Shown here: piece by piece, positions 4,920 to 6,754 of the stretch
Layout of the letters: each line of letters begins with the position of its first letter
Position numbering within the stretch: the first letter of the stretch is position 1
Source: Eledone cirrhosa
Lineage: Eukaryota
Reading direction: 5' to 3'
DNA length: 64,000 bases
Assembly (NCBI GenBank): GCA_964016885.1
Contig: CAXHJY010001110.1
Coordinates: 7,908-71,907 of the forward strand
The notes under the pieces: generated by a model
What the model saw: only the letters and a program-made list of their open reading frames with translations
Databases searched by the model: none
What the model was told of the DNA's origin: nothing
Program-made: the position numbers and the translations under genes

Positions 4920-6747
4920 TCCCCTCCCCCAAACTTTTGGCTCGGTGCCTAAATCAGAAACCATTATTATAGTACACATTATATGGCGGGTGATTGGCAC
5001 TATCGGTAGAGGGTCGGACGCCATGCTTTGCAGCATAGAGTTATGGCCCTTTGCGGTCTGAGTTCAAATCCCGCTGGGGTTAACTTGCCTTTCATTCTTA
5101 CGGCGATAAAATAAAGCCCCAGTAATGCACTGGGGTAATTGCTGACCTTGTGCCAAAAGTAGAAACATCTATTATAGTACAAGTAAATAGGAAATAACCG
5201 ATAGACACAGTTTGATAATATAAGCTGAATGAGTGAAATTAAATTGAATCAACTTACAACTGTTAACTTCGTGGCTTGTTAGTGTTCAGTTGTGAGCAGT
5301 GAACATTAACTAATGTTACCACACACTGCAATGGCCTTCTTCTCTCCAGATATATCTACTGTAGTAAGTTCCTTTCTACACCCACCTAGCAAAAGCAACA
5401 CAAATGCCGTTGCGAGTTCACGGTAGACGTTTTAAGACTTCACCCGATGTTATGTCACCTCACACGATATGTTGCTCTCAATGAGATCGTTAATCGAGAC
5501 TTGAATGCAGCTAAAATCCAGCGGGGTTAGACCGAAGCGACGGCAAAAGGTCGAACGACAACACAATCTTCTCCTTCTATAATGGTAAGTCCCTCATTTG
5601 GGATAGAACTTACAACGAAACTCTCTTCAGTCACTACCTGATAAATTCCGCGTATGACCCAGGCTCCGTTGACCGATAAGCTGAAGATTGCAAACTGTCA
5701 AAGTATCGGCCGCTTCCCAATAGGTGGATCGTTGAATCCATAGTGGTGGGAATCTAGTGTTCTATGTCTTCGAACAAACTCCATACTTACTACGATCGAG
5801 ACGGAGATAGTTATCCGCAAAAAAATGAGCTCCGCGAGTTGGAATTGCGATCCTCCAGGGTAACGCATTCGCGATTCGGTCCGCGAGGATCTTGAGGTAA
5901 CACCCACCTGGTGTTTTGCAAATGGGTATGAGACAGTAGTTCAGACATTTGTAATAAAATCATAAATGTTATGTTAAGAATATGTTGTTAAATAAAGATT
6001 AAAAAAACCCCAAACGCTACAATAATAATTAAAACAAACAAACTAAAAGATTATAACCCATGGAAGTGTTTACAAGAGATGACGTCACGGCTTGTAGCGT
6101 TTCTTCGGCGAAGTTTAAATTTCTCCTCTGGCAAACGATTTAAACTAAGTGAATGCCTTTTCAATATTGTGGTAATCTATATACATTCTGTAACGTATGT
6201 ATTTCTCTCACAGTCAGAGGGTTTTGCTTCTCTGCCTCATTTATGAATCTGTTTTTGTACGAGTTGTATTTCCTTACTTGACATCTCCTATCCGATCTGA
6301 TCCTAAACTTAAAAAGAAATTTGGTCTCACACGAAGGGAATGTTCTGATGCTTGTCGGGATGAGAGAGAATTCAATTGTAGATATTATAAATACGTTGAC
6401 AACAATGGCATTTGTTTGATATCAGGTGACAATATGTTTATTATAAAAAAGTACACCAATAAATCTATCGAGAGAGCTTTGTTTAAACAAATTGCTAATT
6501 TAAAGGAAACGATAGATAAACTATACGAGAAATATTCCGAATTTGATAAAATAAAGGATAAGATTACAGAGTTGAAAAGGAAATCAAATTTACAGTCGAA
6601 GTCCCTTATGATTATAGGGAAACACTTTAAGGAGGCAGTCATGCATGAAAAACGTGCTCTCGCTGCACTCGACCGTAAAGTGAAGGAATTGGAATTGAAA
6701 GGAAATGAAAGAAAGACAGACTTCGCAGCAGTGAAGGTCCAGATACA
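4920..6747 (+). repeat. Direct segmental duplication of 9753-11605 (upstream region plus 5' part of the lectin gene)
   Basis: Offset is 4833 and becomes 4858 after a 25-bp indel (GATAGCGAAAGCAGCGAATTTCAAC, ~10849-10873, bounded by AACG microhomology). Confidence 0.95.
4985..5178 (+). mobile_element. tRNA-derived SINE (duplicated at 9818-10011)
   Basis: TGGCACTATCGGTAGAG A-box, GAGTTCAAATCC B-box and ATTATT tail. Confidence 0.7.
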
Positions 6748-6754
6748 AGTTTAA
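6197..6754 (+). pseudogene. 3'-truncated paralog of the 869-aa PAN/coiled-coil/C-type lectin gene (185-aa ORF)
   Basis: Identical to the long ORF for 78 aa and aligns to residue ~184. The stop codon comes from inverted SINE sequence at the junction (~6748). It could still make a short product. Confidence 0.8.

Follow-up and report, generated by a model that had tools for sequence, protein, structure and literature searches.

Clustered amino-acid divergence between a lectin-like gene of Eledone cirrhosa and its truncated neighbouring copy

Three described systems come closest to the locus reported here. In the genes that encode the red and the green opsin of humans, for which PMC3924837 describes an island-of-divergence model, tandem copies with near-identical flanks show one local peak of divergence around the amino-acid changes in exon 5, synonymous sites included. 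Human SRGAP2C, a 5' partial duplicate, retains the self-assembly region without the C-terminal part and has its substitutions gathered in what it retains; its expression and heterodimers have been shown (PMC5435084). The gastropod CREPs and FREPs, which are VIgL lectins, combine a small N-terminal domain, a coiled-coil interceding region and a C-terminal lectin-type domain (PMC10075465). A lectin-like gene of Eledone cirrhosa and the truncated copy beside it share the sequence features just listed for the opsins and, with a stalk predicted to self-assemble, for SRGAP2C, and the parent gene shares the layout of CREPs and FREPs. Unlike the opsins, one copy is truncated here and maybe silent, the comparison has two sequences only, and the divergence peak ends at a rearrangement junction, so that only one flank is visible. 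Expression and heterodimers, shown for SRGAP2C, would be putative for the short copy of E. cirrhosa; the two copies here differ at many residues for so short a stretch (22 of 105), and that patch has changed in the parent as well. The parent differs from CREPs and FREPs in having a PAN-like domain instead of an IgSF domain, two lectin-like domains and a much longer stalk, and in being a single gene, not a family. The anatomy recalls SRGAP2C and, for the parent, CREPs and FREPs, without meeting their defining features.

The window, the whole stretch of 64,000 nucleotides that we analysed, is nearly the whole of a 71.9-kb contig in a 3.0-Gb assembly. It holds the one full copy of the lectin-like gene found in the whole assembly, with the following parts.

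11055-13664, plus strand: full-length open reading frame of 869 aa with a hydrophobic N-terminus, a PAN-like domain, a coiled coil and two C-type-lectin-like domains
6311-6454, plus strand (partner 11169-11312): PAN-like domain, aa 39-86, by Pfam and alignment
11325-11729, plus strand: coiled coil of the long copy (aa 91-225), predicted by a trimer model to be parallel and three-stranded
12726-13112, plus strand: first C-type-lectin-like domain, degenerate, with approximate limits (weak matches only, near aa 558)
13305-13640, plus strand: second C-type-lectin domain (Pfam Lectin_C, aa 751-862; 33.1 bits against a cut-off of 22.6)

The 869-aa frame is 65-66% identical to its Octopus orthologs (O. 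bimaculoides, O. sinensis and O. vulgaris) and 54% identical to that of Argonauta hians; with such relatives, the animal is an octopod. These four octopod orthologs (XP_014771436.1, XP_036358255.1, CAI9721023.1 and GAB1597926.1), uncharacterised and with no function given, are full-length, share the architecture over the entire length at 54-66% identity, and are the single members of their named species in the protein database, where, in contrast to the E. cirrhosa locus, no short paralog of theirs turned up. Two distant relatives, P0005 and P0157, reach about 27% identity. No homolog of 122-389 aa occurs in the protein database, and a genome search for extra paralogs matched the front of the protein twice and its middle and end once each. 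A search of publications, whose supplements lay outside it and might list orthologs, found none on this gene; it is an undescribed cephalopod gene, and its divergence adds one more case to a type of pattern already known.

The four cysteines of the PAN-like domain are invariant across all aligned homologs. Its Pfam match is borderline and lies within about aa 39-91: against the curated PAN_1 cut-off of 21.4 bits, two of six proteins pass (the short copy with 22.1 and P0005 with 23.6), and the other four, namely the long copy with 21.2 and three of the named orthologs with 17-18.9, stay slightly below. This part of the model has a pLDDT of 56-63, and its best related fold match is plasminogen (40 columns, rmsd 1.9, E 2.1). 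No Ig family is among the Pfam matches of the six homologous proteins. Sugar-binding C-type lectins carry EPN or QPD plus WND calcium/sugar motifs. These motifs are absent from the second lectin domain in all seven aligned full-length sequences, which have RPD and WLD at the motif positions instead, and sugar binding is therefore not established.

For the stalk, we modeled three copies of long-copy residues 30-228, a trimer being the sole oligomer number tried. The predicted structure is a parallel coil over residues 91-225, with a score of 0.62 against 0.00 for the best of three controls; the runs agree in at least 95% of contacts with pLDDT of at least 77. The mark was calibrated on eukaryotes, where 17 of 29 solved self-pairs (7 of 16 in animals) and 0 of 30 single chains scored that high; the trimer job, with its three copies, is unlike this calibration, and its pass might reflect memory of other coils. 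The open 185-aa frame of the short copy would retain residues 91-183 of the coil predicted to trimerise. A full-length AlphaFold model was unusable (pLDDT 35), a wide fold search returned generic coils only, and the ESM Atlas gave no usable match. A Toxin_trans match on the coil, at 18.2 bits against a cut-off of 25, was set aside as noise, and with it a toxin reading.

Upstream of the gene, its front part is present a second time.

4920-6430, plus strand (partner 9753-11288): near-identical part of the duplicated block, with 3 substitutions and one 25-bp indel per 1,511 bp
6197-6754, plus strand: truncated copy of 185 aa, with the PAN-like domain and about 93 coil residues (open reading frame, block alignment)
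9753-11605, plus strand: partner block, the front of the full gene, 97.0% over 1,853 columns
4213-4921, plus strand: LINE fragment ending at the left junction, 89% to an RTE-type element upstream of the window
6751-7092, minus strand: inverted copy of 1100-1442, 98.8%, starting within a SINE-like repeat and joined to the short copy at 6747/6748

The duplicated block, 4920-6747, aligns to 9753-11605. Its left end cuts a SINE-like repeat, which continues at the long copy, and abuts the LINE fragment; to the left as to the right, the two blocks are flanked by unrelated sequence. With three junctions, the duplication is a local rearrangement rather than a plain insertion. The truncated copy is free of internal stops and frameshifts, lacks a lectin domain and receives its stop at the junction, from the inverted copy. 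No 3' remainder of an old paralog is present in the assembly, where the rest of the gene occurs once. An old dispersed repeat (66-81% to many loci) occupies 5515-5930 within the duplicated upstream block. Around the start there are splice consensus signals (stretches 5335-5370 and 6197-6217; long-copy equivalents 10168-10203 and 11055-11075): a strong acceptor ends at 5349, a GTAAGT donor follows at 5364, bounding a 14-base micro-exon, and an acceptor at 6213 is in matching phase. Judged by these consensus signals, the first seven annotated residues may belong to an intron, and further exons may lie upstream; the true first exon may possibly lie outside the duplicated block.

Behind the near-identical part, the two copies diverge abruptly.

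6431-6745, plus strand (partner 11289-11603): island of divergence, codons 79-183, with 24 nonsynonymous and 4 synonymous base changes
6590-6613, plus strand (partner 11448-11471): patch 1, codons 132-139, with changes on both copies
6644-6661, plus strand (partner 11502-11519): patch 2, codons 150-155, with all six changes on the short copy

The island has 28 differing bases per 315 bp and 22 differing residues of 105; the upstream part has 4 differing places per 1,511 bp. An earlier note, from a manual codon comparison, had counted 23 differing residues and about 25 nonsynonymous against 4 synonymous changes in residues 79-184, and our codon-by-codon comparison returns the same numbers; codon 184 is the rearrangement junction itself, so that the fair count is 24:4 with 22 residues over codons 79-183. 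Its two patches, LQSKSLMI/KETKAITL and HEKRAL/RQELSV, are also as described, with 7 of 8 and 6 of 6 codons changed by 14 base changes, none at a third position. They lie 45-65 residues past the PAN-like domain, in what is predicted to be coiled coil, as the note had placed them. The PAN-like domain, called invariant there, is identical except for changed residues 79 and 81 inside 39-86, and little can be read from this about constraint, since the upstream non-coding DNA is equally identical over 1.3 kb.

Both variants are backed by raw reads. The analysis covered four of six listed runs, and no RNA run was among those on offer. Two (X1 and X2) come from one sample, possibly the assembled animal, and two (X4 and X5) are RAD, X5 from another sample and study. 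Patch 1 of the short copy lies in a read contig with 0 differences at a depth of 5.0 in X1 and 5.6 in X2; patch 1 of the long copy has depths of 9.6 and 5.2. The junction contig, too, has 0 differences (depth 4.9 and 6.2), and the part shared by the copies reaches 13.9 and 11. In X5, a single read carries the short copy's letters at all 13 listed patch positions and ends before the junction, and another agrees with the long copy at 4 of 4 positions in 6431-6460. In X4, the gene is hit by no read. An assembly or consensus error might have made the second copy or its differences, since the gene shares its 71.9-kb contig with an adjacent 42 kb of satellite, and the depths cannot separate 1:1 from 1:2; furthermore, no read contig spans both copies, and the tandem order therefore rests on the assembly. 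We give such an error hardly any weight, as the patch-1 and junction contigs match without differences in both runs at a depth of about 5-6, the depth of the shared part is about the sum of the two variants, one read in another study matches, and the DNA around one block is unrelated, on both sides, to that around the other.

Synonymous sites make up 20-26% of the sites in the island. On the whole segment, a counting test gives a dN/dS of 1.6-2.3 (p 0.09-0.29), and the maximum-likelihood omega over codons 79-183 is 1.5-2.2 (likelihood-ratio p 0.12-0.45); the overall ratio of nonsynonymous to synonymous changes is no more than chance. Codons 118-171 have a ratio of 19:0 (likelihood-ratio p 0.0005-0.005 for a window picked post hoc), and a longest-run correction for this stretch leaves p 0.008-0.04. 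Synonymous divergence is also raised, at 4 of 63 sites in the island against 3 of about 1,330 upstream (about 30-fold, p 0.0001), and the age or local mutation rate of the segment therefore differs from that of the flank. Very low flank divergence with a local peak that includes synonymous sites is what an island of divergence looks like; the contrast with the upstream DNA speaks of age or local mutation rate and is not proof of selection.

The arrangement of the changes is more telling than their ratio. We simulated 29 random changes, keeping stop-free outcomes (9,000-17,000 simulations per setting), and found p 0.0008-0.0014 for 13 changed residues within 24 codons and p 0.002-0.004 for a run of six; both patches together arose in 0 of the stop-free simulations. 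The base changes alone are clustered at p 0.03 only. In patch 2, every codon has one base change and none is at a third position (p 0.003 given six changes in 18 bases). The amino-acid clustering is more than chance, and the local pattern is not random. The "strong diversifying selection" of the earlier note keeps its descriptive part, a pattern that is real, read-supported, clustered and frame-aware, but the whole-segment omega is not significantly above 1; the phrase, and the gamete, immune or toxin role attached to it, go beyond the evidence.

The mutation spectrum is unusual, with 6 transitions and 18 transversions among the nonsynonymous changes. Our yardsticks are local repeat pairs (130:60) and SINE copies (124:57), about 68% transitions, and the excess of transversions has p 0.0002-0.035 for kappa from 4 to 2. 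This repeat yardstick is imperfect, as its rows overlap and are mostly mobile elements; a narrower tally of recent repeat pairs, 17:11, leaves out one row of 0:5, and the variant types of the satellite, 19:37, show no transition bias. Two AA/TT doublets, at codons 81 and 132, resemble single multinucleotide events, and without them the excess has p 0.003-0.13. Multinucleotide mutations are transversion-rich and mimic selection, according to 10.1101/165969. Other origins of the pattern were considered and rejected. Purifying selection on another reading frame fails because the other five frames carry stops in the long copy; a local template switch, a spacer inversion or a third donor fails because no nearby source is longer than chance, and the only exact genome match for patch 2 is patch 2 itself.

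These features bear on a reading that we regard as possible but doubtful, in which the short copy is dead or relaxed, its changes came without selection and partly by clustered, transversion-rich mutation near the junction, and conversion upstream made the flank contrast. The omega over codons 79-183, not significantly above 1, and the two doublets fit it, and localized hypermutation near rearrangements has been described (PMC3861665). The repeat just right of the junction is more diverged than the rest of the inverted piece: 3 of its 4 differences fall in the first 72 bases (3/72 against 1/271, p 0.03). The lack of a stop is unremarkable (p 0.23-0.5), and the consensus splice signals suggest that the start exon is perhaps outside the block. 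Against this stand the 0 third-position changes among 14 in the patches and the one change per codon in patch 2, an island with neither a proline gain nor an indel, and the location of its densest part 90-160 bp from the junction, not at the junction.

To see which copy changed, we polarised the protein residues against the four named orthologs. Among the 19 polarised sites, 14 have the outgroup residue in the long copy and 5 in the short copy (134, 136, 137, 138 and 182); sites 81, 88 and 128 are unpolarised. In patch 1, the short copy changed at 132, 133 and 139 and the long copy at 134, 136, 137 and 138, so that the intact gene took 4 changes in 5 codons. In patch 2, all six changes belong to the short copy and fall in a motif that reads RQEL(S/T)V in 4 of 4 orthologs. 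The distant relatives, too, share K132, E133, Q151 and E152. Of the short-copy changes, 11 of 15 (codon 184 counted) are at sites invariant in the four outgroups, against a background share of 80/106. The earlier note had held that neutral decay of a pseudogene would not be expected to give this pattern. Scattered neutral point mutation of the present gene indeed does not (the short copy as the present long copy plus 28 random changes has p 0.0003-0.0006), and the lineages therefore split earlier; however, relaxed constraint also predicts that 14 of 19 changes lie on the truncated copy, without avoidance of conserved sites. Mutation at the junction cannot give the short copy 5 outgroup residues, so decay would also call for an earlier split and for another cluster, this one on the intact gene.

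The N-terminal part may have been fast before the split. Against distant outgroups, it is faster in the same direction in 6 of 6 comparisons, one of them significant. A relative-rate test with Argonauta as outgroup (19:3) was set aside because in trees Octopus and Argonauta group to the exclusion of E. cirrhosa (bootstrap 70 and 86; by the AU test, no topology is rejected).

Mapped on the predicted trimer, the changes fall in the stalk and show no preference for core or surface: 5 of 19 changed sites in 91-183 are core, against 24 of 93 overall, and the patches would form bands right round the helix. The core changes in the model are mostly mild (E133Q, L137I, Q151E, V155L), E169G not being so, and K132L and L153R would lie outside the named interface. 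Escape from co-assembly through the coil core was rejected, since core sites are not enriched.

We consider it unlikely, though it accounts for several observations, that the short copy is a captured allele. There would have been two old allele lineages under balancing selection on the stalk, and a recent rearrangement would have copied the front of allele B beside allele A; the upstream match would be ordinary allelic similarity, and the short copy need not work. This explains best why both outer edges are young: the upstream block (4/1,511) and the unique part of the inverted piece (1/271) point to the same young age to the outer edges. It also fits the one member per named species in the protein database, the missing 3' remainder and the changes on both lineages; and the matching read of a second animal, which ends before the junction, could therefore derive from an allele of full length. 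Against it count the rarity of deep balanced alleles, the lopsided changes (14 to 5), the changes at K132, E133, Q151 and E152, residues kept in distant homologs, and the fact that no full-length B allele was seen.

Our preferred reading, with a probability of about 0.4, is an island of divergence between paralogs, in which positive selection acted on a stretch of the stalk and gene conversion evened the upstream DNA; selection in some form seems to us somewhat more probable than its absence. The short open reading frame is a 5' partial copy of the lectin-like gene. In this scheme, the coding lineages would have split well before the upstream DNA last matched (4/63 against 3/about 1,330), and gene conversion likely homogenised the DNA upstream of the island. 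Changes around residues 128-171 would have been favoured, mostly on the now-short copy and also on the full gene. The selected surface would be a band round the stalk, probably a contact site for a partner, a protease or the chain of the other copy, and presumably not a sugar site. A local rearrangement would then have cut the copy, and much of the divergence may predate the cut. Several observations weigh against the paralog island. Both duplicated pieces show almost no divergence at their outer edges, as a single recent rearrangement would explain better than an old paralog; the assembly holds no 3' remainder of an old paralog; and the whole-segment omega is not significantly above 1, the changes are mostly on the truncated copy, no face is preferred, the two doublets and the imperfect yardstick weaken the transversion excess, and the faster N-terminus is significant in one of six comparisons.

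Should a single event have both duplicated and cut the gene, and the inverted piece (4/343) give its date, the nonsynonymous rate would be about eight times neutral (25/255, p 1e-6). Very unlikely, in our view, is that the short copy is a young working gene, a putative secreted chain of PAN-like domain and stalk that joins or competes with the full-length trimer, with the copies pushed apart residue by residue in the same stalk band, as in the interleaved changes of 132-139.

If selection is the true cause, the locus would be a compact natural island of divergence between duplicates, the stalk and not the lectin head would be the contested surface of an undescribed cephalopod protein, and the protein would be flagged as a recognition molecule. 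If decay is, it would show cleanly that, when only a pair of sequences is compared, positive selection can be imitated by clustered mutation, gene conversion and a small number of synonymous sites.

Two KR pairs that the long copy lacks have arisen in the short copy (127-128 and 152-153; window 6575-6580 and 6650-6655). They could be convertase sites that release a 23-residue peptide, and are likely chance in a lysine-rich coil.

The surroundings of the gene are rich in repeats. Its polyadenylation signal is at 13776, with a 2.2-kb TA-rich microsatellite (13797-16011) directly behind, and 21709-64000 is a 49-bp satellite array of about 42 kb, with neighbouring units about 96% identical and a strong G/C strand skew. 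Upstream of the window (contig 1-7907) lie a minus-strand open frame of 1,028 residues from an RTE-type LINE and, at the contig start, a 528-residue reverse-transcriptase-like frame, both typed by eye. A young mobile element at 18477-21434, with at least 40 copies genome-wide at 94-98%, has a 119-aa open reading frame without a Pfam match and inverted segments (20672-20868 and 21521-21718) that contain 34-bp tandem units; part of it recurs upstream of the window.
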